64,000 nucleotides of DNA from Tubulanus polymorphus. Taxonomy: Eukaryota; Animalia; Nemertea. Position numbers and translations under genes: made by a program. The notes under the pieces are model-generated. The model was given only the letters and a program-made list of their open reading frames with translations. It was not told the DNA's origin and did no database searches. Below are positions 19,101 to 62,156 of the stretch, piece by piece. Within the stretch, counting starts at the first letter, position 1. Every line of letters begins with the position of its first letter. The stretch lies in assembly GCF_964204645.1 (NCBI RefSeq), contig NC_134026.1, positions 15,348,150-15,412,149 of the forward strand, read 5' to 3'.

Positions 19101-22100
19101 AGAATTCCTTCAGCTGGAGATATACATATTTACCTAATCCAACTTCTGATGGCTGTTCATTTCGTTTTTTTCTGTGGCAGATGTTTTTCAATAGGAGCAC
19201 CTAAAAGAACAAAGCGGTATTTACTGACTAACCCATGAGGCGCTAGAAGTAATAAGCGAATGGAAAATTCAAGGGAAATTAAATCATTAAAGGGTGTTCA
19301 TGTATTTGCAGTTTCTAATTGCAATTGAGCTGACACAAGTAAATAGAATTCCTTGAACTGGAGATATATGTATTTACCCGATCCAATGTCTGATGGCTGT
19401 TCATTTCGTTTTTTCTGTGGCAAATGCTTTTTAATAGGAGCACCTAAAAGAATGAAGCAGTGATTACTGACTAACCCATGAGGTGTTAGAAGTAATAAGC
19501 CAATGGAACATTCAAGGATAATCAATTCATTAGAGTTTTCATGGATTTGGCGTAAATCCATGTAAATTTCAGAATCCATGTGTTGTCAAAGAGGAAGCCC
19601 TGTATCAGAGCCCTATTTACTATAATCAGGACACCTACTCATCAATGGGGAATCTGTCTCTTCTTCAATCAACACTTGATTGGAACAGGGAAGAAATGTC
19701 AATATTATCTGATGAACTCAAGGCAGTTCCAGTGTTACATGTTAACAAGGAAATGTCCTCCTAAGAAAGTATAGTTGCCAATGTCAGTTTTCAACGATCA
19801 ATAAATCAGAGGTTTGCTAGATACTACAGCTTGTTCAACTACAAATTCAGTTATTTCAGTTGCACATACCTGACCATTCATCATCGAAATTGATAAGAAC
19901 AGGACAATCTGAAAAAGAATGAATGAAAAATCAGTGCTCAATTCTATCAAAAACTAGTCCCTCTTTGTCTAATGAAATCTTAAATTATAAAATCTTTATC
20001 TCATCTAACTCAAGATACATCCACGATATTAGCGAAACAAGAGATCATACAGGCAACACATCTTCAACTGGGCACTGGCCTACCTTGTAGCTGTATTTCA
20101 TCCAGTCCCTTGCCTTGATAATTTTGCATCACTCCATTGTCCATGGCAATGAGCAGACGAGCCACTTTCGTTTTCTCAAGGACAGAACTTGATAGTCGAT
20201 AATGATCCATATGGATATTCAAAGAGTGACCCATATGATCACACACTAATTTCAGTTCTGTAGGAGCCATATCCATTATCTGTTAGCAAACCAAATACAA
20301 AATACTAAAACAAAATCCTAATACCTTTTATCTCCCAACCCACATGGTGCCAAGGACATTATTTTTTTATATTTTTTTGCGAATTAGGAGCAGAGGGCCT
20401 ATTCCCTTATACATTTCTATTGTTACCGAGATTAGGCCTATAGTTTGATACTCAATTACGTTAACATAAATTCATAGCAAATGGCCTGAAGCACACTGCT
20501 CATATATACCTGCGAAGTTGTAGCCAGATACTTTCTCATTTTCTTGGTTCTTATATACTCAGGTTTTTCTAGACCAGGGCAAAGTGATGTAACATTTCGC
20601 ATTGCCTGGCAACCATCTAGGGGTGTCAGAGCATTCTTTGATTGCCTAGAAAAGCACAGAGCACAAGAATCAGTTTACATTCGTAACATCTATTATAGGT
20701 AGCATCTTGTTTCCGTGTAGCCTATACACTAGAGCAATATCCGATAAGAAGTCTTCTTTGAATGTGCGATATCATCTGCACGTATGTATCTTTTCTTGTA
20801 AGGAAAGTGGCCTTACTAAGGCAAATAAAGATACAATAATGCTAGGGCACCTAAAAACACAAAAATACTGTTTTGATGTCAAACACTGCCCGAATGTGGG
20901 TTCAATGCTTGGCAAATCCTTTTTTAACGGTTGGCTCGAACTGAACATGTGAAACTGCATCAGGTTTCAAAAGACATTTTTCATCCAACTATAGATCTAT
21001 AGCGGGAAACTCAAAATGATGGTTCTCAAAAAGATTTTTTCAGTTCCAGAAATTTGCGACTGAATAAGATGGAGTCTAGTGTACACGTAGTTAGGTAATA
21101 ACTTGTAACCATAACCTTACCTTGCAAATAAATATGGGTTCTTGGAAACAGATGTAGACTGTGTAACCAAAAACTCCATTGCTTCAACAAGGAACGGGGT
21201 TAAAAGAACAAAAACTTTCCTTAACCCCCGGGTACTCTTACCCCGTACCTCCAGCACCGTCATCCTTTAAATAAACAAAAATTACATTATCAATGTAACA
21301 CCTGCCATTTCTTAATTGGCTCCATAAAAGAATCAAATTTACACTAAGTCCAATAAGATATAAGTTATGAGGATCAAGTTATGGTACATACACCTTGTTC
21401 ATTATGCTTTTTTAAAATAGTTACAAGTCATTTTCCCTTGAAACGTTTTTCAGAATGGCAAGTGAGGCTATTCTAAAACAGTTTCTCAAAAAACCTCATT
21501 TAAAATATCTTACCTTTTAGCTTTTTCGGTAATGTCGAGGGATTCAACGATTTCTTCACAGTCTTGAACCGCCATGACTTTCGCGAAATCAGATGTCTTA
21601 ATTTCCTCAATTTCTGCAACTCTTCTCTTATTAGAGATTAAAATTCGAACCATTAAATGCTCAGCTAATGAGCGCCACTCAGCAGAATTGAGTTGATCTT
21701 TACGCGTCAGTGCAGAAATCTCCTTTTCTGACCAAACCTTTAGCTTAATAAGGTCAGACGTTAGTGGTATTTTGTCTACACCGTTTATTTTCAACAACTT
21801 TTGACGTCTGCTCAATATACAAGAGAGTCGGTTATTCCAATGGGCTTCATATAAAATCTTGAATCTAGAAGCTTCTTCTTCGATCTCACGCTCGTTTGCA
21901 ATGATGCCATTACTCTGTTTTAAGCAAACACATTGCTTGATGTAATGACCCTAAGAAAGGCCCAACTGTGGTGAAATACACCCTAAAGCTTTCACTGCCT
22001 TAACAACATTCCAGAAATTGCAAGGTTTTAAAATGCTGTTAAGGTCATGTTGTGTTCTGCCACAGACTGAATTAAACTGTTGAACAAAGCGAACTAGTGA

Positions 22101-24493
22101 CCGTATTTTTGTACGCACATTATCTTGATCTTTCCGTCTCTGTTCTTCCTTTGTTCCTAATCTACCTAGCTGTAACTTAGCGAAATCTCGGATCAAGCTT
22201 TCCTTTTTGCAAATGTCTACAAGACCAGGATTTGATTTTGTTTCACGCAGACCAATTAGGAGGGTTTCTAATTTTATATCATCTTCTTCATCAACAGAAA
22301 TACAGGGTAGCAATAAACATCTGCCATTCCTCAAATAATTGATTTCCGGCTGTTCATTGCATGGTTTGAAAGGGCATGACGATTTGATATGAACCCATAA
22401 GCTTTCCTTGTAATATAATCCGTAACAGAATTCGCATGGCACAAAGTCCCAAGGACGTTTCTCCAATGCTGATGATGGAATCAACCGCCTCGCCAGTACC
22501 AGTTCTCCTCGACCTTCCTTAATGACCTTAAACACAAGCAAGACAGTGCATGAAACTAGAGGATTAGATAAACCATGCAAACTATGAAAATTTAGAATAC
22601 ATGTAGTACTATTGACAAAAGGTTTGTGAGCACAGATTCAGTGGCAGAGTTAGGTATAATCGATATAAAGAAAGTCCCATTAAAAATAACAAGAACTATG
22701 AAAATGAAATATGTAAAAAAATGTTTCGGAAAAGCACAGATCATTCACAAAATTGGGAGTCCAGTTTCAGCGTGTGTATAATTGCTAGGTATATCCAGAT
22801 TTGCTCTAGAATAAATGGTAACCAGAAAACTTACTAAGACAATGGAACCAGGACATCCCAGCCTGCAGGATAGATTAATTTCAGCAAAATAGCAGCTAAA
22901 ATCAGGCAACTGAAACCTGATACCCCAAGTTGTGGGATATACATAAATCATATCCAGAAAATAAGGTAAAACTTAATACACAACTGACAGGGAGTTGAGC
23001 TATGAACTTCTGAAAACTAATACTGGACACCCAAGTTTGGGCATATAATATTATACCCATAAACAAGAGCCCCAAGGGGCACTATGGCCAGCTTGTCAGC
23101 TTTCATTAAATGGCAAATGATGCATTCTGTGGGTTATATTTGTCTAAACACACTCCCAGCTAAGATTCAATACTTGTAATTTACACAATACAATCGTGTT
23201 TTCATAAATAGCACAGACAGCGACTGGAGCTGGCAGGAACAAATACCTCAGATAATTCTTTTTCCCTTTGTCTTATTGATTTGAATGCAGAATGAGATTG
23301 AGCTTTCAGAAATATGCTCAATAAAATGAAATTGAATTGGTTTTGATATTTTTTAAGAATAGAATTTGATTGAATTTGCAGTTTGAGCACATGGCTAATT
23401 AGCATATCAATGTCATCAGTCCGATTTGAGAAAAAGCTATTTTCCAGCACTTTGCATAATTTTCAATGATATTTTCTGTAGTGCAAATAAAACTATTCCT
23501 CCCAAAAAACCAAATCAACTAAGGATTTCACAGAAATCGATCTTGAAATACAATTCTAAATCTTAAAATAAAACCCAGAAGTAAAACAGTAGATACCGCG
23601 GGTTCATGTGAACACCTGCTGATCTCTGCGGCTAAGGCAATCATAGAAGAGTCAACAGATATTTTTGCGTTCACATTTTCACGAAAAAGCTCATATAAAT
23701 TTTAACGAGGCCCTCCTTCAAAATTCAGCTACGTAGAGTTTGAAGAATGGATAATGCTTTAATGAATGATTTGTATGAATATATGCTTAGTTGCACAGTC
23801 AAAAACCCAGTTTAAAATATAAGAAATCATGATACCAAGAAATACATACCTTGGAGTTATGCTCGAAATTCCCCTTATTCTGGAGCAATAACAGACCGTT
23901 CTTTCGTTCCTTTGAGTTGACAGGCATCAGTAAAATTTTTTTTACATCATCTTCCAGACAGTGCACAGAAGTGTAATGGTAAGCAATCTTGGAAGTGAAG
24001 CATTTCCCACAATAAAAACAATAATCCACCTTTCTATAGTCTCTGCTTCCATCACGTTTTGGACGATATACAGGCAAGGTAACTAAAATTGAAATAATGT
24101 ATAACAAAATGACTCCCCTAGTGATGTAAGAAATCCTCGTGTGATTAATGACAAAATGAAACACATTCAATGTCAATGACTACTACATGTTTTGTGAATT
24201 TATGACACACATTATTTCTTTCTTGATAAATCGTGAAAAATGAAGGAATAGATTTTGAAAATTGAGATATGAAAACCTGGTAAATGATAGCTATTGAATT
24301 AGGAGGATAATTGATCATTAATACAGTTGCAGATATTTTGGCATAGAGACACTTAGTGTTATAAGGGTTTTATTATTACCTTAAAAGTCTTTAAGGAAAA
24401 TAATGAGAATGGCAGGAAAGTATGAGATAAATCTTCTGTTACAATGGAACTTGAATGCAAAATAAAATATTTGGTTATCTGTAAACGATGTAC

Positions 24494-27096
24494 CTTGGGC
24501 CATCTTAGCTTTAACACGATCGGTAACATCATCAGGATCGATATCACCGTTGTCTTCAGCAATTTCTTCTCTGTTGGCATCATATTCATGAACATGCTTC
24601 TCAGAGTCATTGTCCGAGTCATTATCATGCTCATCACTGTTTGAAGATTCGTCTGGATAATAATCCTGATCATCAGCATGACCAAGCAAATCGTCTATAT
24701 CATCATCTCTGTCATCATCATCAGTACCATCACTAAGTCTCATAGTATCTGAGATAAACGAAAGTATTAACAATTATCCTCTTCACTTTCAACTACCACG
24801 TAATAGAAGATTGGCTAATTGAATGGTAAAGCTAATAATGCAAGGCGATTAAAACATTCGTGCCCCGAAACTTGGCTTCGATTTTTACATATTCTAACTT
24901 AGGTCTATATGAAAATTTTAATCACTTCTTGTGTAAAGCACACATTTCAGTGAATTCATTTTACACATGCTGAAACAGGTTTTTTTGCTGACAGGCAGAA
25001 AACTGTAATAACAGATAAAATGCAAGTGATGCAAGAGATCCTTGTGTGATAAAGAACATTCATTTGGAAAAACAAAAACATACCATGTCAATGGCTTGAC
25101 AGGTACATTTTATCAGGAATTTATGATCAATCAAGTGAACAAATAATTTCCAACTTTTTACTCCTTCTTCATCACCACCATTTTAATTAATTTCCTTTCA
25201 AGAAAGATTAACATTTCAAAATCAACACATGAACTTACGGGATATAGTCAAACATCAATACGGTTGCAGATGTCTTGTACATAAGCATTTTCAAGAACAA
25301 TGATGAAAATGGCAGGAAAGACAAATCTACACTAGTTTGTAGCAACTTGAATGTAAAGGACCCAAAATGCATAACATTACCTAAAGCCATGTTAGCTTTA
25401 ACTTGATCTTTAACATATTCATCAGCATCGTTAATGTAGCCATTGCCATCTGCAATTTCTTTACTGTTGGCATCAAACTCATCGTCACTGTTGGCGGATT
25501 CATTATGTACAGCAACACCAGGAATTTCTTCATCCATATTGTCGTCGTCGGCATCATCATCTTCATTAAGTGCAGCAGTGTCACATCTATGCATCACCTC
25601 GAGTTTCTTACGCAGAAATCCAACAAGTTTCATCGTTTCCAAGTTAGACGATTCTGAAAGTATTTACAATAATTCTAATGACTTTCAACTACAGTGTTAC
25701 ATAAGATTGGCTAATTGTATGGTTATACAAGGCAAATGATAGTCTTTACATAATGGACATGATATGCACATCGAAAGTCACTGTGCACTTCTTGGCAAAA
25801 AATTTGGTAATGATAACTTCAACTATAATCGAGCTACAGACATTTTGCTATGCACCTAGCAGAAGGAATGTGAACTAATGTAATAGGTAATTGAATGGTG
25901 ATTAACTAAAAAATGTCTTCTTTCTGTAAACTAAATGTTAGATTAGGATCTTGAGAATTAATGTGCGGAAGAATAATTTAAATTTTTGAACTCTTGACCT
26001 TATGGCTGCAAGTCACTCAACCAACCATAAGACCATTCAGACAAGGTCAAGGTCTGCGTAGACCAGAGTACCAAAACGGATACCACTACCACTACCACTA
26101 CCAAAATGCCTAATTAGTTTCCTAGGTAAGGGACAACTAGCAAATGGTAGCTGGATGTAAAGGGCCCCAAAATGCGCGATAAAAGATCTTTGGTTAATTT
26201 AAGATGATTTACCTTGAGCCAGCTTAGCTGCCACTTCATCTTCAACATTTCTATTAGCATTACTAATGTCACCTTCGTCATCTGTAATTTCTTTACTGTT
26301 GGCATCAAACTCATCGTCACCGTTAGCAGATTCATTATCTACAGCAACACCAGGAATTTCTTCATCCATATTATCATCGTTATCACGTTCTGCAGAACCA
26401 AGCCTAGCCTTTATTTCATCCGAGTAAGGGTATTCTGAAAATATTTACAATTAATCAGTCAATGTTTCCTTAAAAGTACAGGGGCCAGTTGGTCAAACAT
26501 TCGTTGAAGATAACTGGCGGATAAATACCATACTAACAATGAACATTTGATTGTCACTACGTCAATTATTTACTGGTTAATACAATGAGATGATGTGCTA
26601 CAAAATGTCGAATGGGCAGAATGGCTAATTAGTCTCCTAGGGATGTAAGAGAAAACAAGGTTAGGAAAACCTGGTTAATGCCTATTATGGAATTTGGCGG
26701 ATAATCGAATATTAATACAATTCCAGATATATGTTCTTCAGTAATTTTAAGAACAAAGTAAAAAAATTGCTGGAAAGCACAACCCATATCGACTGTTTTG
26801 ATGCAACTTGGGTGTAAAGGACCCAAAATGCGCGATAAAAGATCTTTGGTTAACTTAAGAGGATTTACCTTGAGCCATGTTAGCTGTCACTTTATCTTCA
26901 ACATTTTTATTAGCATTACTAATGTCACCGTCGTCATCTGTAATTTCTTTACTGTTGGCATCAAACTCATGGTTACCGTTGGTGGATTCATTATGTAGGC
27001 CTACAGCAACACCAGGAATTTCTTCATCCATATAATCAACTCCATCATGTTCTGCAGAACCCAGCCTCGGCTTCATTTTATCCGATTTAGGAGATT
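24494..27096 (-). repeat. Four tandemly duplicated acidic exons with duplicated intron flanks
   Basis: Units share DANSKEI.D..G.I...V.A.MAQG and similar intronic flanks. Exon lengths 228, 222, 273 and 255 nt, all phase 1-1. Confidence 0.85.
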
Positions 27097-35145: not shown

Positions 35146-36281
35146 TTTGAGCTAGTGATAAGAACTCTAATCCAAAATTATTGTCATTGAATTGATTAAA
35201 TTAGATGATTACTTTTGGGTTAGTAGTCATTAGAAAAACATTCAAGCACGTATGGATGTGAGTGATAAGAACTCACAAATACTAATTAAATATAGATTAA
35301 TATATATATTATCATTGGGAATCAATTACATAATCAATTAATCACATTTGCCTCGGTATTTACTGGATTTACAGTTGAACATTGCTCATTTAATGTTTTT
35401 TCCAAGTGTTTTATGAAAAGATGTATTTGTATTGGAGCTTTAATCGGGGATATAGCGGTCTGGGTGACATTTCCATTTGCTTTAGATTAGACATATATCT
35501 TAAAATTGTTCTTGCTATTATCAGTCAAATGCATTTTATATTTTTTCTTTTTATCATGTAAATTATGTAAAGAAATTAGAAACTATGGTTTATAATAAGC
35601 TCGATAAACATAAATCAATCAATCAATCAATAGTTTAATTTTAACATATTCATGTACACCTGAAATCAGTTCAAATGCAAACTAAGCTATAACTAATTTT
35701 CATTGTTTTCCTGATAAAATTAAAATAGTTTTATTTTCTTTGATCTTTTTTACTTAAATATTCATGTACACCTAAAGGTGAGCTGAAATCATGCAAACTA
35801 AATTATAACTAATTTTCATTGTTTTCCCGATCAAAGGATGATAGAAGCAGCAAATTGTCTTACTTTGATCTTTCAACAGTGTTAAGCTGAAATTAGCATG
35901 AACACATTAGACATAATGATAATTAATGAGTACTTTGCCATTATGACGCAAGTAATGATGGCACAGGTAAATGGGACGGGGCAAGCGGTACCACCAGTCA
36001 TATCATTACCAGACATCGTTAAAACATACGGATGGCCGCTCAGTGAGCTCAATCTAACTGGGCTTCGTGGACTTATTCCATAAATCGTCTTGATCTCTAA
36101 GATGCGGGATGGATCGAAGGTGGAAATCTTAAAATTTACATACTAGAGTGACATATGTGGCGTTACGCCAATCTCTAGTTCTTCTGCATTTGTTCAGTGT
36201 TAGTTCCATATTATCAGAGTGGTAAAAGCTTGGTATTGCTAGTGAAGTCAATTTGAATCTTACTATCTTGTTCTATTGTAG

Positions 36282-36935: not shown

Positions 36936-37739
36936 GAATTGAAATTTATTTTCATAAGGGTATATTCATGATGAGTCATGCAGTTGCATGTAATTATTAC
37001 GTGTGTATAATGCTGAGACCTTTTCATTCGACAGATTTTCATAAAGTTTACTTGGTTCATCTATTAAGGTTACTTTCTTAAATATTAATGCACGGACCCC
37101 CTGAACATGATGTGTTTCCATCACTCTTTAAGGTAATTCCAGTTTCCGAATGAAGTTTCTGCAAACTAAGTCATGGAAATGATCAAATAAAGACCTCGGT
37201 GGCAGATTCAGACGGGAACACAACATGCACGTGCTCTTGTCGCAATGTATATTCCTATGCCATTTTGAAAATACAACGGCAATATTTTTCAGGGCATTTT
37301 TTCCACCAGCAACTAATTAGATGCCTCAGTACCTAGAAATTGTATGAAATTGCACTGAAATTTCATATTTTTAAACCCTTGTTTTGATTGCATGGATACT
37401 TACATGGATATTTAAAAAAATATAAATTGATTGATGGACAGGTCATTTATGATTGAAACTGCCGCGTCAAGCCCTATGGGGCTCTTGTTGATTTGCTGCA
37501 GCTAAATGCCGATTTTGGACAGGTTCTATGTATTGCCGCAGCATATTTACTTAATTTCTTCAAAAACGTATTCAAAGAAAAAAAACGTCATTCAGTAGAT
37601 TATTGCCGCAGCTTTCGCCGCTGCAGTCGCTGCACTTCCAACGCCACTGCATTGGGTTATGGTCACCATGGGGTGTTGAATAACTTAGTATTTCCTTTTT
37701 ATATTGGTACCAGTATAGGCATATTTTGTTATCACAATC

Positions 37740-37955
37740 CAGGTATAAAACATGCCCATTTTCAAAAGATTACTCGGAACTTACGCGGCCGAGCAACTGC
37801 GCTGCTCGGTTTACTGCTCGGACATTCTGCTCGGTTTTGATAAATTAGCCCCGCGCAATATGAGCTGCTCGATAATCTCTGCTCGGAACTCTGCTCGGTT
37901 TCAATCGTTTGTAGATCCGCGCAAATACGAGCTGCTCGGCATGCTGCTCGGAATT
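37740..37955 (+). repeat. Left terminal inverted repeat, rich in TGCTCGG motifs
   Basis: Near-identical reverse complement of 47191-47394, with an extra 12-bp aactctgctcgg duplication. Explains the twin ORFs 37752-37967 and 47116-47382. Confidence 0.93.
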
Positions 37956-39624
37956 ATGCTCGACTAGGTGTTATGTCAAATATTGCGGAGAACCGGGATT
38001 TCCCCAGATACTCAGTAGGCCTACTCCACCGCTATAGCCACATATATACTGCATGGGCAGAAAAACTTGTATACAGGCCGGGGATTTTTGACTGAAATAT
38101 CATATCGCGACCGAGTGACTTATCGTGAAATTTCATGTCTCTCTACTAATGATATAGCGAATCGCACTCTTAGGCGAGAACGACGAAGTCCGAAAAGTTT
38201 ATCTAAGCTATTGATGTCTCCGTTAAACCATAGGCCCCTACATTTAAATTATTCACTTATACAAGAAATTGCTCAGCTCGAATATTCGTTCAACTTGAAC
38301 TATTTTCAAATTCCTTTCAACTCGCATATCTGAACGACCTCCCGGCAGCAAACACAAGTATCGATTAAAGACATGCACGTGTTTACTGCTATATTAGTAG
38401 GTTACCGATAGTAACAGTAGAACGATACACGCTACACAAAATCGCCCACAGAGACATTCAGTTCATTAAATCATGTTTTTGGAAGGTGGCTAAAAATCCC
38501 CTTTAGGCCATTCAAATTTGATACCGTGTTTCTCATTTTTTTAACATTCAATATTTATTTCATGAAGAAAACGATGTTTACAAAAATTACATGCGTCTTA
38601 CAATCACCATGCAGGCATTATAGCAAAACATAAAAATACATTTATATATATAAATAGATAGCGGTCATTGAACACGCCAAGCTCAACACGCGGGAGAAAT
38701 GTTATATATATTATGAAAAAAATACATTGTTTCATCAACACGCGCGTCGGAAAAATCATTGACGAAACTCTAGTAGAAATAAAACGAGCGCTCCCGCGTC
38801 TAGTGTAATAATTTATGTTGGTTTTTTTATAAAAGACAAAATACTCCCGCCCACATCAATAAATGATTGTTCATATGATCTTATTTCTTGTCGTGCTTGG
38901 AGATGGAAGAAAATGTCTTGAAATGCGCTTTGTCGGCAATGAATCAGGTGATTTTGTGTAGATCGGGGTTCCAAGTCCATTGCTCTGGCATGCGGTGATT
39001 TCGATCCCTCGAGATGCCATATTTACTGCATTTTCTACCGAAATAAAAATAAAAAGTTGACTCCCTCATGCTCTTTTTCAATACTCCTCCAAATATTTAA
39101 TTTCAAAGTTTTTTTTAAAAACAGGTTAAGTCAAATAAACACCTGTCTGCCTCCGTCACTTTTCATTACAATAAAACTTTTCTCATAAAGACTGCGAACT
39201 TCTTGGTAGTCAGTTTAACCATTGAATCTAAAACGAACTAAAGCAGTTAAGAATTAAGCCGAAATGGATGTTATCTTAGAATTGGAACAAAACATGTCAG
39301 ATTCAAGGGTCTCATTGACAATTTAGAAAGTGAGACACTATTTAAACAAAATAAGATTTGACGACAGACGGAATAACATCGATCGATTGTTGAGTAACAA
39401 CAGTATAAGCAAATACGCGCCTAGAAATGAACAAGTAATTTAAACTGTTAATTAATCAATTAGTGCAGGCCTGTGGGAAAAAATTGGTGTGGGACCACCC
39501 TATAAAGCCCAGTCCTCTAGTCATAAATTCATTTGCGTTCATCAAGTCAACTACACTTTCATTCACCTGCGTACACTTGCGGATAAATAATAACTTAATT
39601 AGACCAGCTACAATAAATCACAAC

Positions 39625-40953
39625 ATGTATGCGTCGTCAAAAAAATGTTGGGCAGCTATTGAAAAAGCAGTGGAGAGATATAATAAGATATCCGGTGACA
39701 ATGTCGTGGCTGTAACAATGTATCGTAACAGAATTACGAACGTACATGAAATGGCAACGACAGGTACCGATTCATTTCTGAAAGTCGTGGCGGATCAAAA
39801 ACTTAACTTTGAGGCGGCCATGTCTCCTCAGCTTCCGAATGAAGAACCGGGAGCCTCAGTTTGCGATAAATCGTTGCCAGATGTGTGCGAAGTGTACGGG
39901 AAAAAATTATCTGCACTGGCCACCGACAGCGCAAGAGAACTGCTCAGTAATTTAGTTTTTGCGAGCAAAAACATATTAGGACACGGAAAAGATGTTAATC
40001 CTCATTGGGGAAAAGAGGATTTCAGAGCTCCGTGGTGGCCAGCTAATTGGCCTTGGAAAAACCCACGCTGCGATATTCGGCCAGAAAACGACCGAACCAA
40101 CAAATGGGCCGAAGCAGTACGGGCTGCGTGCGCAGATGCATATCGTTTTCATGATATGGAACATTTGACTGGTGAGTAGCAATTCTTGAAGTTTTATTAT
40201 ATATGATAAATATTTTAACTGCTAAATCATATTGAGAATCATTTCTGTTTAATTGGCTTTAAAGTCTTTATCAATCGAGAGAATTATTTATTTTAATAAC
40301 GCATAAGCGTTGATGGAATTGACGATTGAAACAATTCGCCCGCCACGGTAAAATGCATGTAGCAAATTCGACCGTCTAGTACTGCCCCTAGGTATAACTA
40401 AAGCGGGAAAAACGAACTAAGAGGGTGGTACAAAACTTTAAAAACCGTCTCACTAAAAGCCGTCCAATCATTATGAAGGTGGTAATTAATAATTATATTA
40501 ATGGAACTGTGGTCGGGTCCTTAAATACCCTAAAATTCTGAGCTTCCCCCTCAACTTCTGAAAATTGCCTCTGTAAATTTTTTTTCAACTCAATTTGTGA
40601 ATTTAACCCGTACTTATGCATAGGCATATAGCCCATTGACCGGACACCTCCCTACAATTTGCAATTAACTCACCACAATAGTCACATTGGTACCACTTGC
40701 CACATCTAATATAAAGGCCGTTTCTCTATCATTCATTGTTTTGTGTAAGCAGTGAAAAGGTCAAAAGAAATGGGAACTAATTTATATACAAATTTTATAG
40801 TTTTCAAAATTTTTTTCAAGATTTTTACTGGGGGGATGGGTATATTTACCGAGGGGGGATTATTAACTACATTCGTGTAAACAAGTTATCTCAAGAAAAT
40901 TACACGAAACTGGACCCTTCAAATTCTGATTTGACTGATATGTAGGAACCATA

Positions 40954-40989
<36 letters not shown>

Positions 40990-41016
40990 TGTATGTATGT
41001 ATGCATTGTATGTATG

Positions 41017-41079
<63 letters not shown>

Positions 41080-41836
41080 GCTAGTTTTAAGAAATGTTTC
41101 TTATTATTTAGGTGACAACTCAGTTCCAGTTGCAGCGCCCAGGATTCGACCGGTTCCTGCACCACGAGCACCTGCCCGAGCACCAATTGAAGAAACCGTG
41201 ATAGAAGATGCAATCATGAACTGCGTTGAAAACGGTTCTCTCTCCCAAGTGTGCAGTTTTGAAATGACCCTGTTACACGACCAAAGAGGTACAATTCCCT
41301 GATTTGATTGATATACATATATATATATTTATGGTATTAGCAATATTCAACTCTTATGAGTATTCAAAACAGGTGTAAACATTTATTCTTTTTTCCAGCT
41401 AATTTGCAGTCAACTGTAATTGAGAAAGGTGTCCCACAAATTGGTATACAGTACTCGGAACCAGCAGAATACAGTAAGTTAAAATCGCAAATTTCACTAT
41501 CGAATTAAATATATACACAAATAGATACACTGATATTAAATGATCAAATTAATTCATTATTCTCATTAACTATCTCTGAATTATTTTTAAAAATTTTTCA
41601 GGCAATACACAATCGACAATTAACAAGGAGAGTGTACTGCAAACAGTCGAAGAATCAGCATGCAGTAAGTTCATTAGCTGCTTTCCGATTAATCAACTTA
41701 AAGGACTCAACAAAATATTTTTATAAAATTACAATTACTTTTTTCAGAATTTGACGAAACATATACATGTACAACATCAAGATCAAGCAGTCGACAGAAA
41801 TGCCAGACCGAACGGATGAAAACCTATCAACAATAA
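39625..41836 (+). CDS. Transposon accessory gene with NRF1/Erect-wing-like DNA-binding domain, ~316 aa
   Basis: Exons 39625-40171, 41112-41288, 41399-41473, 41602-41664, 41748-41836; all introns GT-AG phase 1; open through to [59 protein letters not shown] aligns by eye with NRF1 PGWGKESCKPIWWPEDIPWANVRSDVR...WTQALRTIVKNCYKQHGREDL. Confidence 0.8.
40951..41077. repeat. (TATG)n/(TA)n compound microsatellite
   Basis: Seen directly; lies in intron 1 of the NRF1-like gene. Confidence 0.95.
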
Positions 41837-41943
41837 ATTTAACAATTTTACAAATAAAAATTAGCTGTCCAATGTTTCAATATCTTTTTCTCAATCTATG
41901 CAACGTCTGCATATTATTGCATTTTTTCCTTTTTATCTCGGTT

Positions 41944-44900
41944 TTATATACATAAAAATAATGAAATGTTTCTCATGAAGTTTTCAATATTCATGTATGC
42001 CAACTGGGCCTTTAATCTGATGAGACCAGCATTTGCCTGTTCATTAATCTGACTGTTGATCTTCTGAATATCTAGATTGGCTCCATATGTGTCTTATTTG
42101 TACCCTATACAGCATCTGAAATTAGAATGGAATTGTAGGCTATCAAAAAATATTGAAGTTTACGTCATCAAAGCGCTTTGTAAACTCTAACACAGACGGA
42201 AAAGTGAAAACATTAGCCCCCTGGACTTCATTGCAAGTTAGCTAAAAAAAAACTTACCCAGTGTGATTTTTCCAATGCATCCTGTCTACACAGAATACAG
42301 TTTCCTTGAAAAACTCTGGCTCTCTGAAAATAAATCAAAAGGAAACCTGTACTTTTGTCTCAAACCTAATTCAGTCCATTAGAATTGAAACTAATTTCAA
42401 ATAATATCTTCTATCTTAGTACTGGTACTAAGAATAGTGACTATAATCAACTTACCTATTCAAACAATACGAGTGAAGCTTGCAAGCATTGTCATAAACA
42501 ATAATTTTTGGCGCTTTCGCGAATCTCGTTTTGAATATACTAAAAGGGTGCCTTGGTGACTCATGACTTGACATGACCTAGTAAATAATCATATTCAGCA
42601 TTGTTACAGGTACTAGATTGCCATAGTTTTTTTTCAAAAGCATAACTTGTCATACTAACCTGGAATCCATAACTGATCCCGTGTGGACAAAATATTGTGA
42701 ACACACCCGGAGTAAGCACACGATGACTCTTGGAATATTTTTGACAAGTGTTTACATCACTAGCTCTGCATGCCGGGCCTTCATTTCCACTATCCATTGT
42801 ATATCGAACATCACTGAAATTACAGATTGACAATTGGGAATACTTATAATTCTAAGAATTTCACATCTACTCATAAGGAAAAATTTTAGTCGTTCGTATG
42901 TAACTAACCTGTGTTGTTTTGGAAGACTTGGGAAGAACTCCAACGATTTAAGTAATTCTGCGGATTGTGCCGGTCTGTAATTGTCCGTGTCATTTCGTGT
43001 AACCTAAAAATTCATTGTTTTGTAATAACAGATCAATAATAAGGTTTTTTTGAAGTTGTTTAATCCAAGAAAGTTTGGTGAAGAACCAAAATGATTTAAA
43101 TTAGTAGCTTAATGTGGAAAATTTACCTGAAAGCAAAACTTGGATCTTTCTATGATATCAATGACTAATCCTAGTACATAGGCAGTCAACTCTGATTCAT
43201 TATGACAATCCAGTATAAACTGAACAAGTATTGGTGCTCTCTTAAGCAGTTCACTCACATTCGCGTGATTGTCACTGTTGAAATATCTAACATCACTACC
43301 GAGAAGATCGTAGAGCAAGTCAACAGTCCCTTCATAATCATTGCACTGCATTACTGCACAGATGGGTCCATTGCAGGCCAAAGCTTTAAACAACACGCGT
43401 TCACAAGATCTCGCTTTTAGACATGAATTTGATTCGACCAACAATTTGAGATTAGCCAGGTGACTGTGTTTAGCTAACATGCTCTCAAGCTGTTTTTTTT
43501 TTCAGTTTTACCAAGTGATTCAGACGCATATTTATGGAGTAATTTTTTACATTTTGAATCTTGTATGAAGACTCTATCCTTATGTTTTGTGCCTTCAACC
43601 TGAACATTCTCTACCCGGGGTGAGTCATCTTTTATGTTGCGCAGCAGATCTTTCCGAAATCCCAGATCTATACCATCACAAATTATTGTACGAGGTTGAT
43701 CCTCACAAACTGGACATGAAAATTCATGAGACCAATCGAAGTCTAATAATCGCACAAACACATTCCACGCACGCTGTAAAGTGTGAAGTGGAATCGCCTG
43801 TTCATTCAATAATTTTGCAGCTGACCGTGACATAGCCCTTAAATGAAATAAAAATTATGTTTTAGCAATTTTAGAAGAAAAGTGTACACTTGTGATTGGA
43901 AAATAGCAAAAAGTATAAATACCTCTGAAATGATGAGAGCGGGTTCCTTGCTTCTACCATTAAATGCATATACTTGAATAACAAACGATAATCCACTAGA
44001 CTTGAATTATTCAAATTCACTAAAAGTTCTTGCTGGCCATCGAAAAATAAACGACAATCACAATCACCAGTGGCGGGGATGTAATACACTACAAAAAAAA
44101 TACAAAAAAATACTGAATACTAAGAAGTCAAATAAGCATTTATTTTAGGGACAAATAATAATATAATGTTTAGACATTGTGATTAATATTATTAAATGAT
44201 TGATTATTTTTACATTACCTTTAATAGGCCTGACAGCACCATCTCTTATAGTATAAGACTGTCCTCCGTTTTCCGTATATATTGTAGCATTCTGCGATTC
44301 CCATCCCATTAAAACAGGATCTCGCTTATCCCACGGGAAATTATGTTTGCAACTAGGAGTTACCAATGACGGAATAAGAGCTTCCGGATACCCTAAGCCC
44401 AGTTTTCGTGTCCTGAGAACTTCCCGCAGACTGCTTGGCAATGGATAGGGTATTTTCAGTGATGACACCGAACTGATCTCTCTCTGCGCAGTAGGTTCAT
44501 CATCACTATTTGCTTTTGACGGTAAATCAAAATTATTTTCTTCGCACCAGTCTTTATACTCCACAATATGAGGGCAATTGTTATTGAAACGACATGTTCG
44601 GCAAATAAAATGTCCTAACCGACTGTTCCATTTGATAATATGTACACCAGAAACGGCAGCGACGAAGGGTTTGTTAGAAAGAATAGCTACTGAAACGGTA
44701 TCAGAAACTTCATTCTCTAAACGATTTTTATACATTTCTGCGACTGCAAAGGAATGTTTGCAGTATCTACTCGTGTAACGCATTTTGAAAGTAGCAATGT
44801 CTTCAGTAACGATTTTACTGAGTGCATTCAATTCTGAATGAACATTCATTCCCTCTTTGCAGTCACATGTCAATAACAGACAAGTTTCCGCTCCACTATA

Positions 44901-45752
44901 AAATTTCTGTCCGTTTTTCACTATAAAATATTCTGCGCCATCCGCAACAACGAAAACTCCACCAGTCACTTCCCAGTGCTGTTCATTCTTAAGTAAGTCC
45001 AAGAGGTAGCTTTGAGTGTCGGTCATATCACACGAAACCACAGCAGAGACAACCCTGGAATGAAAATAATAAGCATACATTACACAGTAACTATTAAACA
45101 GAGAATAGGAAAAGGAGCCGATGAACAGCAGAGTGATTTCAGCCCATTCCATTAGGCTATAGAAATTTAAGGTCAGGTTACGCAGGTTTGACAAATTTTA
45201 ATATATTTATAGCCTAGATATAGAGTGTAGGCCTATAGACTCCCGTAACCGTAGATAGTTTTAAATATTTACACCTGATTTCGAATGAACCGATTGCCAA
45301 ACATGTTTGATACAAATAATTAATAAAATTACTGTTGCCATGACAGGCACATGTTCAAATCTTTAGGCTAGAATAAGACAGATGCCAAATTTGTGTTATC
45401 GAACAAAAAAGAATGAAATATATTCGCTTCACGTCACTAACCAAAAACTATATTATATTAATAAATTAGGTTCGAGAGAGGCCAGAAGACTAGGTAGATT
45501 TTTTTAGTTCATAGCTTCTAAAAACAGTTTAGCTTACCCTACAACACTGGATTTTGGTTTTTCATGTGTTCTTTTTCGATTTCGAATGGTGCCGACGGCG
45601 GCGGCAACGACAACGTTGTTGTCGTTTTTATTGCAGTCGTCATGCTCTCGATGGCTTAACCTGGATATTCTAGAACGTTTGCGAGGCCTTTCCTCGGAAT
45701 CTTCGCAATCCCGTTTTTTTCCTGCTGACATCGTAATTGACCGAGTAGACAT
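41944..45752 (-). pseudogene. KDZ/Zisupton-related (HMGXB3-like) transposase, disrupted
   Basis: Exons 45538-45752, 44219-45054, 43923-44088, 43127-43837, 42909-43003, 42660-42813, 42456-42577, 42258-42323, 41944-42115. SWIM-like and CxC Cys motifs. Catalytic-type motifs CPVC...IICDG, PGVFTIFCPHG, ESP, YDNAC, DRMHWKNH, NSQINEQAN. Lesions: 1-nt frameshift in the T10 run at 43493-43502 and TAA at 42094-42096; the stop at 41944 may also be premature. Confidence 0.85.
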
Positions 45753-47190
45753 GATAGTTTTACTGTTTATATAATCTCTGGTCACTTCACCACCGATCAA
45801 ATTGTGAAAGCAAAGCGCACCACAGTCTCGGAGTGTAACAAAACTTTCGGTAATTAGGTCTAACCGAAACCGGTCCTGCTAAGTACCAAAGCGCACCGTT
45901 TAAAATAACGGTTCTCGTACGCCGCGTGATGACTTTTCACACGGTCTAACTAAAAGGCCGGTCCTACGCATTTTTATCGTAATAAAAACAAGTATCCCTG
46001 TTATTTTCATCGGAGCTAGGCCTAAACTATAGTTTCACAATTATAGTGATTTGCATATCCCCTATTAAATTAATGAATTTAATCGATAACAGAATGAATA
46101 TCGGCCCGGGCGGACCCATGGATGCGGCTCTGCCAAAGCTTGAGACTCGTAGGCCTATTTTTGATAAATAAAGTAAAATAAAAAGTAAAAATAAGTATAA
46201 ACTTTTAATGATTTAATATTAAGACTTGGCGTATTGAATGACACTGTAAAGTATATAAAAATTAGAAAGGTTTAGCTTACCTCATCGAGAATAAAAGTTT
46301 TTTGGCAAGAAATTTGTGAACTTATATCATTAACTAAAATCATCGTATATAACTTGTAACAATTAATTTTTCTATTTGAACGTCAAGACGCATATTTATT
46401 CATATTCTGATGTACAAATTCTAGTCACTTCAAAAACAGCCCATCAGATTAGTTGACATATATAGGCCCATTTGTGAATGGATCCGAGGTGGATGTTCGG
46501 AGCAAATTTGTAATTCGATCGTATGACAAGATCATTCGTTTGAAGCCGTCATCGGCCTTTGGCACACGATTGTCGAGTATACAGATAATTCATGCCACGC
46601 GAAAAATACATACCAATAGGCCTACGAAATAATTCATAGATTTAGTTCAGTAAAAACATTACCAGAAAAATAAAATCGTAAACAATTAAAGACGCCTCTA
46701 AATCAACGGCTGTTGTCACCTGTCTCTTCATGGGTAAAATATGATCAATAGTTCACTCAAACATCCAAAAACCTAATGATATGTAGTTCTACAACTAATG
46801 AACAATATTTTTTTTCATGTATTTTTTTTCTCCGTCAAAGGCGCGCTCAAAAATGTATCAACGTTTGCTCCAGTGGTACATCATCTCTACGCGAATAGCA
46901 ACATCGGCGTTAATTACTTGCTACTATGACGCTAATCCGAGCAAAGTTGCGTTACTGGAGCAGTTACTCGGCAAAAAAAATCCTGCTCGGCCGAGTAAGT
47001 CTTTCTGATCGGTGTAATTACTCGGCCAGATAATTATCTATTGTTCGGGTAGCATATAAAACCCAAAGACAGATATACGGCCAAATCATTCAGAGTTTAG
47101 AGGTTGGTGCGTTCACTACGTAGAGTTCAGCGATGACAGATGTTCCGAGCAACCCGAGTATCGTGCCTTTGCTCGGTATTTCATACGTTC

Positions 47191-47394
47191 AATTCCGAGC
47201 AGCATGCCGAGCAGTTCGTATTTGCACGGATCTACAAACGATTGAAACCGAGCAGAGATTATCGAGCAGCTCATATTGCGCGGGGCTAATTTATCAAAAC
47301 CGAGCAGAATGTCCGAGCAGTAAACCGAGCAGCGCAGTTGCTCGGCCGCGTAAGTTCCGAGCAATCTTTTGAAAATGGGCATGTTTTATAGCTC
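47191..47394 (-). repeat. Right terminal inverted repeat
   Basis: aattccgagcagcatgccgagc...gaaaatgggcatgttttatagctc, the reverse complement of the left TIR. Confidence 0.93.
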
Positions 47395-48403
47395 CACAAT
47401 CATTTGCTCAATTGAAGCTTTTGACATGTTCTTTGATTGTGGTTAGTTTCAAGTCATTGGTTTATGTATGTGGTCACCAGGGGTAATTGAATATTGAGAC
47501 TATTAGATTGTTGAGCATTTGATACCTCTTCCCAAGTGGGCATGGTATCCCTGGACACCTAGTTTACCCTTTGTACTCATATCCTCAAATATCATTCTTA
47601 TAGAAATAAATGTGACCAAGATATTTCTATTGCACTGCAACCGTGAATTTGAACTGGAATAACTACAGCCAGCATGCAACAATTGTTTTATTAATGAAAC
47701 AACATGGTGGATGGTTGAAATCACGCAAGTTTTAGTACTTTAATGAATTGCACGAAACCATGATCCCTAAAATGAGTCAATTGATTAAGTCTATTCGTAA
47801 ATCAATTTACGTTGGCTGCATTTCCGGATGATTTCTGGCTCTAATCAACGTTTTTGGACAGAAATGGTGGGAATTTTAATACGGAATTTTACTTCCGCGT
47901 TCAGTTGACGACTCGGATCGATGACAACGACACTGGAGTTAATGTAATTAAGGTGAGAATCCGTTAACCAGGGAATGTTTTAAATGATTTCTTTAATAAC
48001 ACGAGTACATATGGTAGCGAATAAATGTACTCGGTGAAGAAATGGTCATTGTTAATGCCTAGCTTTGTGGGATTCGCCTAGAGTAGCTTAAGGCCCTGAA
48101 TATAGTGGGTAGAGCCAGTCAGTGGAATGCCTAAGTGGGTTGGTTAATACTTATGTGTACGAAAATTTATTTTGATTACTTTCTTTCCAGCTATTATTTG
48201 TGGAATGAACTGGTCACTACAGTCTTCAATTCCTTTGCGGATTCTCGCAGGAATATAGTTGGGTGGAATATATTTAAACCACAGTGCGCAAGTGTACGTT
48301 TCAAATCAGGCTTTTTCGACATTGGCAGTCAAAGTTCTATCTAAACACTCTAACTTAAGCTCAACTGTCTCAGATGCTGTAAGTACTTGATGTTTTGCTT
48401 AAA

Positions 48404-48760: not shown

Positions 48761-48761
48761 T

Positions 48762-50770
48762 TTTTAGCCCACTTGGGACTTAAGTCCCAGCGGGCTATTG
48801 CGTTCACTTTTCGTCCGTTGTCCGTCTGTCCGTTCGTCCGTCCATCCGAGACGGAATCCATTTATTTTGGGAAGTTTTGAAGACACTTCAAGGTAATGTC
48901 TTGATATTTGGGTTACACATGTATCTACCCTAGACACATCTTCAGCCCAAAAACTGGCCCTGTCAGATTCAAGATGGCCGACTGGCAGCCATTGTTGTTC
49001 GCCAAAATCAGCACTTTTTACACATTTTTGAACTTTTTGAGGGAAATTTTGAAGACGCTTTGATCAATTAACTTGATCTTTCGGATATATGTGAATTCCC
49101 CCAGTGCCCATCAGCATAACAAAAATTGGGTCGATTTTAGACTCAAGATGGCCGTCCTATGACCTTTTTAGTGCCCAAAAATGTTAATTTTGGCCCAAAT
49201 TCTGAGTTCTGTAGCTTCCTACTGGTTTATCATTTCTCATTGCAATTAGTGATGGGTATTCTTTGGAAAGGGATGTTTTATACCTGAGACAGGTATTTTT
49301 CATCAGCCAATTATGACGCAATTGGCGGCCATCTTGATGTCAGCAGTACTCATTCGTAAGTGGGAAAAAGTTTTTCCACATTATATTGATACCTAAGCGT
49401 ATTTTGTTACCACAATCATTTTGAAAGTTGTAGCTCATAACGTGTTCTATGATTGTGGTGAGTTTCAAGGTCATTGGTTTTTGTATATGGCCACCAGGGG
49501 GCGTTGAATAATGCAATATCTTAGTATTTGTATATTATATTCGTATCAATGCATATTTTGTAACCACAATCAATTGCAAAGTTGTAGCTTATGACATCAT
49601 CTATGATTGTGGCAAGTTTTAAGGCCATTAGTTTTTCTATATGGTCACACGGGGGTGTTGAATAGTAGAATAACTTAGTATTTCCTTATTATATTGGTGC
49701 CTAGGCATATTTTGCTACCATGATCAATTACAAAGTTATAGTTCGTGACATGTTCTATGATTGTGGTGAGTTTCAAGGTCATTGGGTTCTGAATATGGTC
49801 ACCAGGGGGCGCTGAATAGTAGAATAACTTAGTATTTCCATATTAAAGTGGTAACGAGGCATATTTTGTTATCACAATCAATTACAAAATCGTAGCTGCT
49901 GACATGTTCTATGATTGTGTTGAGTTTCATGGTCATTGGATTCTGTATATGGTCACCAGGGGGCGTTGAATATTGCAGAGATGCTAGTTTTCCGGAAATA
50001 TCCGGAATTCCGGAAATTTAGGATCGCCGATGTCAATTCCGGAAATTTGGTGAGAATTCCTCGCGGCGACCAGTATTGGCACGGACCGTAAAAGCTTTCG
50101 TTTGCTTGTACTCGTCGTCGCTTCTGTGTTATTTTATCTTGGTCTCCGTTTCCGAGATGATATTTAATAAATATCATCTTAATTATAACCATGCGCTTGC
50201 TATGTCCTGAGGCACGCAGCTTTGTAACTTTCTTTTTGCCTGCAGCTGTCAAGCGGGACGGTCTGCAAAATGAGCACGCACGGAAAGATTTTCAGTCGGG
50301 AGTCGGCCGATATAAAGGCAATTGACAGCAGTATAAAAAATAAATTTAACTGGCACTGGCTAGAGTGTAAGGACAGTAACGGGGACTACTTATCGAACTA
50401 CATTCATAAGTTAGACTTAGCTGGCGTGGCGTACTGCGTCGTTTGTAAAGACCAGGTCAAATACGGTAGTGGCGGGAAAAAAGATATTCTTCGTCACCCG
50501 GATAGCGCGCGGCATAAGAAGGCAGCGAGGGATGTGAAGCACAACGAATGCCTGCCGTCGTATTTTCAGATGAAAGATGCCGATCGTGATACTGTATCTC
50601 CGGTGATGCAAAAACGCAAAAATTTTCCTGGGGGAGAATTTTTCTGACCCTCCGTTCTAAATTCCGGAATTTTGGTACTTTGGCCCTAGCATCTCTGATA
50701 TTGAAATTGTTAGATTGTTGAGCATTTGAAACCACTTTCCAAGTGGGCATGGTGTCCCTGGACCCCTAGT
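48762..50770 (+). mobile_element. HINE/DINE-like element with ~154-bp tandem array, interrupted by a hAT-like element
   Basis: 5' ttttagcccacttgggacttaagtcccagcgggct followed by (GTCC)n. About four tandem units at 49400-49975. Resumes at 50698 exactly as in the copy near 7921. Confidence 0.75.
49976..50697 (+). mobile_element. hAT-like internally deleted DNA transposon with 6-bp TSD (copy 2)
   Basis: Same TIRs as 5696-6539. TSD atattg at 49970-49975 and 50698-50703; empty site tgaatattgaaattg at ~7921. ORF 50270-50647 has FNWHWL...YCVVC...LRHPDSARH, a BED-like zinc finger of a transposase N-terminus. Confidence 0.82.
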
Positions 50771-61569: not shown

Positions 61570-62156
61570 TGCAAGAAGATGCCCTTAGACCCAAAATTAA
61601 TGACAATAACAAAACATGTATACCCCTTATTCTCACATACAATGAATATAATGTGAAGGTAGCTAGAGTCATCCGTGATAATATAAACATACTTCCAAAT
61701 GATCAACAGATAGGTCATCTATTTGATAACCACAATACAACCACTTTCAAAAACGATCAGAATATAAGAAACAAATTAGTTCGCGCTTAATTGAACCGAG
61801 CAGACAATGAAATGCTTGGTACTTTTACATGTCATAGAACTAGATGTTTTACATGCCCATATGTTTGCAATTTGAGTCACATTCATGGTAATAATTTTGA
61901 TTTTCAAATTCGTCGTTCATTCGCATGCACTAGTGACAATATCATTTACTGTATTCTTTGCCTTCAGTATAACATGAAATACATCGGCGCAACATCCTGT
62001 CGACTTAGTGATCGATTCAGAGAACATTTACGCGCTATTCGACAAATCATCCCCACTAACCCTATTTGTAAACATTTCAACTCGAACGGTCATGATATTA
62101 ATGATGTAACAGTAATGGCTTTAGTAACAATTAATAACACACAAACGAAGAATTAA
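61570..62156 (+). mobile_element. Penelope-like retroelement 3' fragment (GIY-YIG endonuclease)
   Basis: IPLILTYN...NIRNKLVRA, then C-x4-CxxC, NIIYCILC...KYIGAT..RLSDRFREH...HFN..GH. In-frame stop at 61788-61790. Confidence 0.85.

Follow-up and report, generated by a model that had tools for sequence, protein, structure and literature searches.

Structure of the element

The window (the whole stretch of DNA that was analysed, 64,000 nucleotides) carries at 37740-47394 a cut-and-paste DNA transposon of 9.7 kb, in which two genes lie tail to tail between inverted ends. The terminal inverted repeats (TIRs; 37741-37955 and 47191-47393) were aligned over 215 columns with four mismatches and one 12-bp indel. 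Terminal sequences are CAGGTATAAAA at 37740 and GAGCTATAAAA at 47394 (reverse strand), resulting in CA..TC termini. An exact 7-bp target-site duplication (TSD), CACAATC, is present on both sides; when the flanks of this one insertion were compared at 4-6 and 8-11 bp they mismatched, and 7 bp alone matched. An 8-bp TSD was rejected, as the flanks mismatch at 8 bp with these termini. A second element in the window speaks for 7 bp as well: its terminus, GAGCTATAAAA at 11771, breaks a host repeat exactly at the first G.

The left TSD falls within one unit of a host repeat of 154 bp that recurs at 49369-49972. A 12-bp insertion at 47247 in reads was considered as a sign of other copies and rejected, since it equals the left TIR aligned to the right TIR. 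A TIR-like 11-mer at 49276-49286 is not taken for a related end either, because its second occurrence, at 7385-7395, lies within a palindrome of a very high-copy repeat.

Splicing of both genes was deduced from splice signals and homology. The features of the element are as follows.

37733-37739, plus strand: left TSD CACAATC (exact 7-bp match with 47395-47401)
37740-37955, plus strand: left TIR, about 215 bp, packed with TRCTCGG words (TIR alignment, word counts)
39625-40171, plus strand: NRF1-like exon 1, MADS-like dimerisation domain and NRF1 DNA-binding domain (PF10491, PDB 8k3d, model/Foldseek)
41112-41288, plus strand: putative exon 2 (GT-AG signals and open frame alone)
41399-41473, plus strand: putative exon 3 (gene model)
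41602-41664, plus strand: putative exon 4 (gene model)
41748-41836, plus strand: putative exon 5 with stop (gene model)
41944-42115, minus strand: transposase exon 9, putative catalytic Glu (SQINEQ), two premature stops (homology, gene model)
42258-42323, minus strand: exon 8, DRMHWKNH motif (homology, gene model)
42456-42577, minus strand: exon 7, putative second catalytic Asp (YDNACKLH) (homology)
42660-42813, minus strand: exon 6 (homology, gene model)
42909-43003, minus strand: exon 5 (homology, gene model)
43127-43837, minus strand: exon 4, putative first catalytic Asp (ICDG), helical insert, frameshift at 43493-43502 (homology, gene model)
43923-44088, minus strand: exon 3, CxC4-like cysteine cluster (Pfam CxC4 E 0.0022, below cut-off)
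44219-45054, minus strand: exon 2, SWIM-like CxC...CxH motif and further Cys/His cluster (sequence motifs; Atlas SWIM lead at 0.85 only)
45538-45752, minus strand: exon 1, basic, NLS-like, putative start (gene model)
46937-47190, no strand assigned: right subterminal zone, more TRCTCGG words, some in inverted pairs (word search)
47191-47394, minus strand: right TIR (TIR alignment)
47395-47401, plus strand: right TSD CACAATC (exact 7-bp match with left)

The sequence-only reading had proposed a complete element with TIRs and a TSD, carrying a nine-exon transposase gene on the minus strand and a five-exon gene on the plus strand that end about 100 bp apart. Both gene models hold, every intron being GT-AG, and the stop codons are 107 bp apart. 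The outline of the element likewise stands; its coding capacity does not, as the transposase of the present copy is broken at three points: the 10-base run at 43493-43502 carries a frameshift, and stop codons stand at 42094-42096 and 41944-41946. Reads carry sense codons at both premature-stop positions. The present copy is dead for transposase, and could still supply the helper proposed below or be moved by another copy.

The 845-residue transposase model is 35% identical to a Ptychodera transposase over 815 columns and 35-49% identical to KDZ/CxC4 relatives in general. When the window's exons were scanned singly against Pfam, none matched KDZ. Among relatives, the KDZ (PF18758) cut-off was passed by 3 of 7 and 2 of 4 proteins (two sets, with one protein family in both), and the CxC4 cut-off by the homologous part of the Ptychodera proteins, in agreement with the earlier assignment to the KDZ type; relatives also fall in Atlas KDZ clusters at 0.95-0.96. 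Three acidic residues, the Asp of ICDG (motif at 458), the Asp of YDNAC (754) and the Glu of SQINE (810), are conserved in the four full-length rows and are putative catalytic residues. The fold model was of low confidence (pLDDT 51), and a structure search with it gave no match. Six basic NLS-like clusters were counted on the transposase and none on the NRF1-like partner. Of 22 candidate stretches in a metagenome scan, three were transposase relatives. Their contigs, 1.6-6 kb long, carry no NRF1-like gene and break off at the 3′ end of the transposase or close to it, which makes them uninformative for a tail-to-tail partner. No relatives were found on 24 viral contigs or in eight prokaryote genomes.

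The NRF1-like protein and the end words

The plus-strand gene has an open frame of 316 aa. Its exon 1 matches Pfam PF10491 (Nrf1_DNA-bind) with E 6.2e-14 and 52.6 bits (cut-off 23.5) and PDB 8k3d with E 3.4e-10. A predicted model of exon 1, the alignment behind which included host NRF1 rows, reached pLDDT 89.4 and retrieved 8k4l by Foldseek (E 1.5e-7 over 185 columns) and 8k3d (rmsd 1.9 Å). The NRF1/EWG-like domain that had been read from the letters is thus borne out by profile, structure and fold matches, and the exon 1 product has, as modelled, the fold of both the dimerisation and the DNA-binding domain of NRF1. NRF1 residues R206, N242 and R244, the base-reading residues according to excerpts of PMC10810270, correspond to R104, N146 and R148 of the window's protein, in which the equivalents of W224, D246 and W258 are also kept. 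The tail is rich in Pro/Ser/Thr/Gln (46 of 133 residues). Like NRF1/EWG/P3A2 (PF10491; PDB 8K4L, 8K3D; PMC10810270, excerpts), the protein has a MADS-like dimerisation domain, a linker and a DNA-binding domain; unlike them, it begins at NRF1 helix 3, lacks the N-terminal NRF1 helices and is only about 23% identical. NRF1 and EWG are conserved host genes, whereas genes of the window's type are multi-copy and transposon-linked.

A full HMMER scan of proteins gave 111 NRF1-type matches; word-indexed protein searches with exon 1 gave no relatives among 332 and 23 candidates. For the tree, 18 of 112 rows (<80 aa) were left out, after which 10 low-occupancy rows and 23 rows more than 75% identical to another were dropped. 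In the resulting unrooted 61-row tree, the phylogeny against host NRF1 that the earlier reading had called for, eight proteins, the window's among them, form a separate clade (support 99.3/100). The window's gene accordingly falls apart from host NRF1/EWG, i.e. it is not orthologous in this unrooted tree. Since the clade consists of long branches, part of its support may be due to attraction. Its members average 23% identity to host-type NRF1, and identity among themselves falls to about 30%; the PF10491 cut-off was also passed by all seven other members. Among the base readers R206 is conserved in 7/8 members and N242 in 8/8. The base-reading loop varies: the R244 position is R, K or S, and D246, fixed in 27/27 other NRF1 rows, is present in 3/8. 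At the V243 position Pro is found in 8/8 members versus 0/27 other NRF1 rows. This loop variation fits what would be expected if each family reads its own DNA word.

The word GCTCGG occurs 25 times in the window, 20 of these in the two ends of the main element; the whole-window expectation is 7.3. In the three element ends CTCG is preceded by a purine in 37/37 cases (81/174 elsewhere), and that purine by T in 32/37 (53/174 elsewhere), TIR copies not being independent. TRCTCGG words are concentrated in the outermost 460 bp or so, away from both start codons. The 8,749-bp interior of the element has seven T[AG]CTCG, close to the background of 31 in the 62,904 bp that lie outside the three ends. 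By their sequence the end words resemble the NRF1 half-site, TGCTC being one base apart from TGCGC. In the excerpts of PMC10810270, the TG/TA wobble is a change tolerated by R206, and human NRF1 binds less well when position 4 of the half-site is T instead of G. Because of this position 4 difference, a changed specificity must be assumed for the NRF1-like protein, a point against reading it as the end binder.

Apparent recurrence of the pairing

The window also holds a second, decayed element and a further NRF1-like fragment.

11771-11960, plus strand: left end of a second, decayed element, with terminus GAGCTATAAAA and TRCTCGG palindromes (breaks host repeat exactly; motifs)
13723-13890, plus strand: start of a second NRF1-like gene, dimerisation-domain part (profile iE 3.3e-4; hhalign E 6.9e-6, probability 84.5%; no Pfam match)
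35937-36131, plus strand: decayed NRF1-like fragment, start of the DNA-binding domain, with stop (tblastn, profile)

The decayed element repeats the terminus, the TRCTCGG word and, at a like offset, the NRF1-like start of the main element (1952 bp from the terminus versus 1885 bp). The interval 11771-13374 was considered as a closed small element and rejected for want of a TSD. The Tubulanus protein, used as tblastn query, matches the fragment at 35937-36131 with 54% over 44 aa and E 1.6e-6.

In Ptychodera flava, transposase XP_070541358.1 directly precedes XP_070541359.1 ('DNA-binding protein Ewg-like') in accession number, and each lies on a contig of 39,134,633 bp. Similarly, in Tubulanus polymorphus, XP_074659467.1 (LOC141912150) and the transposase piece XP_074659468.1 (LOC141912151) are consecutive, both on a 14,301,023-bp contig. 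Adjacency in these two cases is read from accession order and equal contig size, not from coordinates or TIRs. On this footing two of four named clade members, and two of the five named Ptychodera and Tubulanus transposase loci, could be given a partner, which limits the case for a regular pairing. Transposases are dispersed in both animals, with two copies 99.8% identical on different contigs in Ptychodera and three copies, 95-97% identical, on three contigs in Tubulanus. Branchiostoma has the transposase, yet none of the 111 NRF1-type matches is a clade member from Branchiostoma. The window's transposase is 49% identical to that of Tubulanus versus 35-39% for Ptychodera, and its NRF1-like protein 33% versus 28%, both weak comparisons of three taxa over unequal spans.

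Together with the second element in the window, these cases speak against the one-off capture that the sequence-only reading had named as an alternative. The pairing appears recurrent, in acorn worm and ribbon worm, and it is likely that the NRF1-like protein accompanies the transposase in several animal phyla. Such neighbours abroad might also be an artefact of the order of accessions, or of independent insertions beside stray NRF1 paralogues. We regard this as highly improbable: in each of two independent cases accession order and contig size concur, in one of them LOC number too, the window's NRF1-like gene lies inside the TIRs, and by a rough estimate (at most 10 copies each among ~40,000 proteins) chance adjacency is below 1% per genome.

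Proposed role and place among known systems

We favour, at somewhat better than even probability, a TIR-bounded KDZ-type (CxC4) transposon whose NRF1/EWG-fold partner travels with the transposase and serves as an end-binding helper. As the ends are packed with NRF1-half-site-like TRCTCGG words, a Harbinger-like helper is the best guess. In short, the NRF1-like protein would dimerise through its MADS-like domain, and the DNA-binding domains of the dimer would read the TRCTCGG words lining both ends. Like the PIF/Harbinger Myb-like protein, it would then load the DDE transposase onto the ends or set its position there, and the transposase would cut and insert, leaving the 7-bp duplication. The precedent is Harbinger3_DR, whose Myb-like protein recognises a 9-bp subterminal motif and must be present along with the transposase (PMC9710019, excerpts). 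The SWIM-like and CxC4 clusters of the transposase could read TRCTCGG instead, which counts against a helper role. The NLS-like clusters lie on the transposase and not on the partner, unlike in Harbinger, and this counts against the helper analogy.

The partner might rather be an element-encoded transcription or anti-silencing factor that acts on the CpG-containing end words or on the two promoters and so maintains expression of the element, with the transposase finding the ends alone. It keeps a transcription-factor layout (dimerisation domain, DNA-binding domain, Pro/Ser/Thr/Gln-rich tail), the promoters of both genes point into the element at a distance of about 1.6-1.9 kb from the word arrays, and the TET/JBP genes of fungal KDZ elements are believed to work against silencing (PMC12730594, excerpts). 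The restriction of the words to the outermost ~460 bp, away from the start codons, and the near-background interior argue against this role, which we consider unlikely while giving it real weight. An old captured host NRF1 copy, hitchhiking without serving the element, would account for both domains lying in one exon, as after retro-copying; the host intron positions used in this comparison are presumed ones. KDZ elements take up many cargo genes, and in the excerpts of PMC12730594 Kojima calls TET/JBP transfer passive. Neutral cargo would decay, as the window's relics do, yet frame and DNA-contact residues survive at ~30% clade identity across at least three distantly related animals, and such a passenger is very unlikely. 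Slightly lower credence still goes to an action on the host, e.g. pairing with host NRF1 or taking up host NRF1 sites in the germ line. Both NRF1 domains are kept in the predicted fold, and two or three of the base-reading residues are common to both proteins; against this, identity to host-type NRF1 averages 23%, the N-terminal helices are absent and each member has a divergent base-reading loop. The widest version, an animal-wide KDZ lineage with an obligatory NRF1-fold end binder of which host NRF1/EWG, the master regulator of promoters of mitochondrial and housekeeping genes, is a domesticated member or ancient sister, is a long way from probable, though not negligible.

An apparently undescribed animal KDZ lineage is defined by CxC4, long TIRs, a 7-bp TSD and a conserved second gene. 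If the end-binding helper role is true, it would be a third independent two-protein solution to cut-and-paste transposition, after the Harbinger Myb protein and CACTA TnpA. The partners form the first fast-evolving NRF1-fold family, each member probably with its own DNA word in the element ends, through which the NRF1 recognition code and the origin of NRF1 become directly testable. Some stray 'Ewg-like' annotations in invertebrate genomes are explained as transposon parts. No description of a KDZ and NRF1-like pairing was found in the literature searched, a scope outside which Repbase, Iyer 2014 and Bohne 2012 lie.

With the KDZ superfamily (Kyakuja, Dileera, Zisupton; PF18758, CxC4 PF18717) the element shares a multi-exon transposase, Cys clusters and conserved D, D and E; it differs in combining a 7-bp TSD and long TIRs with CxC4, ~845 aa and NRF1-fold cargo. 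Extra genes, namely TET/JBP, are already on record for KDZ elements (PMC12730594, excerpts), so that the present case adds a cargo and a lineage to an established superfamily. Compared by TSD, termini and protein features, it fully fits none of Zisupton, Kyakuja and Dileera. Fish Zisupton is similar in TIRs, multi-exon transposase and animal host, and has 8-bp TSDs, proteins of up to about 1400 aa and CxC7 (PMC12730594, PMC12062965, PMC9297572, excerpts), whereas the window's element has a 7-bp TSD, an 845-residue CxC4 transposase and a separate second gene; CxC7 gave no match in the transposase relatives scanned against Pfam. Kyakuja of mushrooms shares the 7-bp TSD and the carrying of a second gene, but has CA..TG termini without TIRs (PMC12730594, excerpts) in place of CA..TC and 215-bp TIRs, and the cargo here is not TET/JBP. 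Dileera has an 8-bp TSD. PIF/Harbinger resembles the element in pairing a transposase with a DNA-binding protein of 300-400 aa and in its repeated subterminal motif, and differs in transposase superfamily, 3-bp TSD, short TIRs and Myb/SANT fold; the requirement for both proteins, demonstrated there (PMC9710019, excerpts), is inferred for the window's element.

Structure and coding content of the element

The main element was delimited by inverted repeats of ~215 bp, which differ by 4 mismatches and one 12-bp indel and are flanked by an exact 7-bp target duplication, CACAATC. Its insertion split one copy of a 154-bp host repeat; intact copies at 49369-49972 contain the target a single time. At 11771, a second terminus of this type interrupts a different host repeat, the break falling immediately before the first base of the terminus; this fixes where the ends start, so that a 7-bp duplication is favoured over one of 8 bp. 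The sequence-only reading had described a complete element: its outline was borne out, while the transposase is broken by one frameshift and two stops. The features concerned are as follows.

37740-47394: main element, two-gene transposon (inverted ends, target duplication)
49369-49972; 18809-18987; around 37658-37739 / 47395-47496: 154-bp repeat family (sequence repeats in the window)
11771: left terminus of the second element, same type, followed by TRCTCGG palindromes
11771-13890: left part of the second element (terminus, TRCTCGG palindromes, NRF1-like start)
35937-36131: decayed NRF1-like DNA-binding-domain fragment (sequence match)

Adjacent to the 154-bp repeats, a very high-copy repeat with a GTCY microsatellite and a palindrome starts at 48761, which resembles a Helentron-associated (HINE) element. 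Judged by eye, minus-strand ORF pieces at 14484-16130 resemble a MULE/FLYWCH-type transposase, those at 21510-25663 (spliced, with Cys/His motifs and acidic repeats) a tyrosine-recombinase (Crypton-like) element, and the plus-strand ORF at 61791-62156 the GIY-YIG endonuclease of a Penelope-like element.

Nine exons, on the minus strand as had been proposed, make up the transposase gene, and every intron is GT-AG. Aligned with Ptychodera XP_070560456, its 845-residue model is 35% identical across 815 columns, and identity to a Tubulanus protein reaches 49%; using a 41-residue exon as query, 26 of 26 candidates were relatives. Several relatives score above the Pfam KDZ or CxC4 cut-offs, the Ptychodera transposase falls among KDZ clusters in Atlas, and D, D and E motifs are conserved at model positions 458, 754 and 810. 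Judged from sequence, the transposase is a KDZ member. At the two premature stops, sense codons were present in 11/24 and 7/12 reads (run X5), and one X1 contig (948 bases, 10 differences) covers exons 2-5 of the NRF1-like gene and transposase exon 9. Hence, a non-identical version, either an allele or another insertion, carries both genes in linkage. The stretch 44199-44541 has a ~10% diverged counterpart in X1 and X2, which points to a related subfamily. Among the retrieved transposase relatives, 25 near-identical ones (P0130 and P0146-P0159; many 846 aa, single-ORF calls, contigs of 0.6-5 Mb) probably represent an intron-free, recently active family of another animal.

The NRF1-like gene was confirmed as a plus-strand gene model of five exons and 316 codons, exons 2-5 being predicted from splice signals and reading frame alone. 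Exon 1 matched Pfam Nrf1_DNA-bind (E 6.2e-14), as anticipated, and human NRF1 in PDB (E 3.4e-10). Its structure model (pLDDT 89.4) consists of a helix, two strands, a helix, a flexible linker and DNA-binding helices, and matched the NRF1 homodimer structure (E 1.5e-7); the front part gave weak MADS-box matches. Equivalents of R206, N242 and R244, by which NRF1 reads bases according to PMC10810270, are all kept. Clade members P0001, P0007 and P0025 stop or become low-quality right after a conserved TG corresponding to the end of exon 1, which hints at a common intron position.

Recurrence and origin of the pairing

Searching 1.84 billion proteins yielded 111 NRF1-like matches, seven of which form a clade with the window's protein, separate from host-type NRF1/EWG (FastTree 0.991, 94 rows; IQ-TREE 99.3/100, 61 rows; both trees unrooted, with long branches). 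P0107 and P0175, short NRF1-domain proteins, were placed between host NRF1 and this clade. Four of the seven are named (three Ptychodera, one Tubulanus). The NRF1-like and transposase searches were independent, one per gene, and adjacency was taken from accession order rather than coordinates. Ptychodera XP_070541359.1 directly follows transposase XP_070541358.1 (39,134,633-bp contig for both), and Tubulanus LOC141912150 directly precedes transposase piece LOC141912151 (14,301,023-bp contig for both); XP_070542580 and XP_070532876 of Ptychodera had no neighbour among the transposases retrieved. Other transposase loci were also retrieved, Branchiostoma being among their sources. The transposases of both animals are dispersed, near-identical copies, the pattern of mobile elements.

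In the window's second element, an ATG and NRF1-like dimerisation domain lie 1952 bp past the 11771 terminus (1885 bp in the main element). This relic and that at 35937-36131, 22 kb apart, continue each other in the profile (positions 4-57, then 62-121); they may be separate relics or the halves of a single gene into which 22 kb of insertions came. The window yielded neither a right end nor a transposase for this second element. Between its left end and NRF1-like start, an inverted terminus copy, GAGCTATAAAA, occurs at 13364-13374, with neither target duplication nor repeated words. Together with the Ptychodera and Tubulanus pairs, this element speaks against a one-off capture; the pairing is real and, judged by accession order outside the window, recurs in no fewer than three animals that are only distantly related.

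The tree is unrooted. Of the clade members, 3/7 weakly match PF11001, a fungal family (E 0.0015-0.083), which suggests that the NRF1 fold is older than animals. Capture of the gene from a host would therefore be more likely than domestication, and derivation of host NRF1 from a transposon protein family appears improbable.

Possible role of the NRF1-like protein

Of 25 GCTCGG copies in the window, where 7.3 are expected, 20 lie in the main element's two ends. The consensus over both elements, TRCTCGG, is one base away from TGCGC, the half-site of NRF1, and alternates between TG and TA, a substitution which R206 of NRF1 accepts (PMC10810270). By the same source, the differing base would weaken binding of human NRF1; however, the neighbouring V243 position is Pro in 8/8 clade members, and the base-reading loop is variable among them and nearly fixed in host rows. 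Given these word-lined ends, the half-site likeness and the altered loop, we lean slightly towards a helper that would bind TRCTCGG in the ends, by analogy with the Harbinger Myb-like protein, described as binding a subterminal 9-mer (PMC9710019). Zinc clusters are present in the transposase itself, and its partner keeps a transcription-factor layout, which makes self-activation or anti-silencing the strongest competing role, though a less likely one.

Comparison with known KDZ lineages

KDZ elements with TET/JBP cargo genes have been described (PMC12730594), so a second gene is not surprising in itself. An NRF1-fold cargo with Zisupton or any transposase was absent from the literature searched (Repbase, Iyer 2014 and Bohne 2012 being outside its scope), 'NRF' occurs 0 times in Kojima's supplement (PMC12730594), and the pairing, which might have been catalogued already, is apparently undescribed. 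The element represents a KDZ variant with a putative helper mechanism that is open to testing. In Kojima's descriptions (PMC12730594), Zisupton and Dileera have 8-bp target duplications, in contrast to 7 bp here, whereas Kyakuja shares the 7-bp duplication but has CA..TG termini without inverted repeats. Compared by these descriptions, the combination of long inverted repeats, a 7-bp duplication and CxC4 corresponds to none of these lineages.
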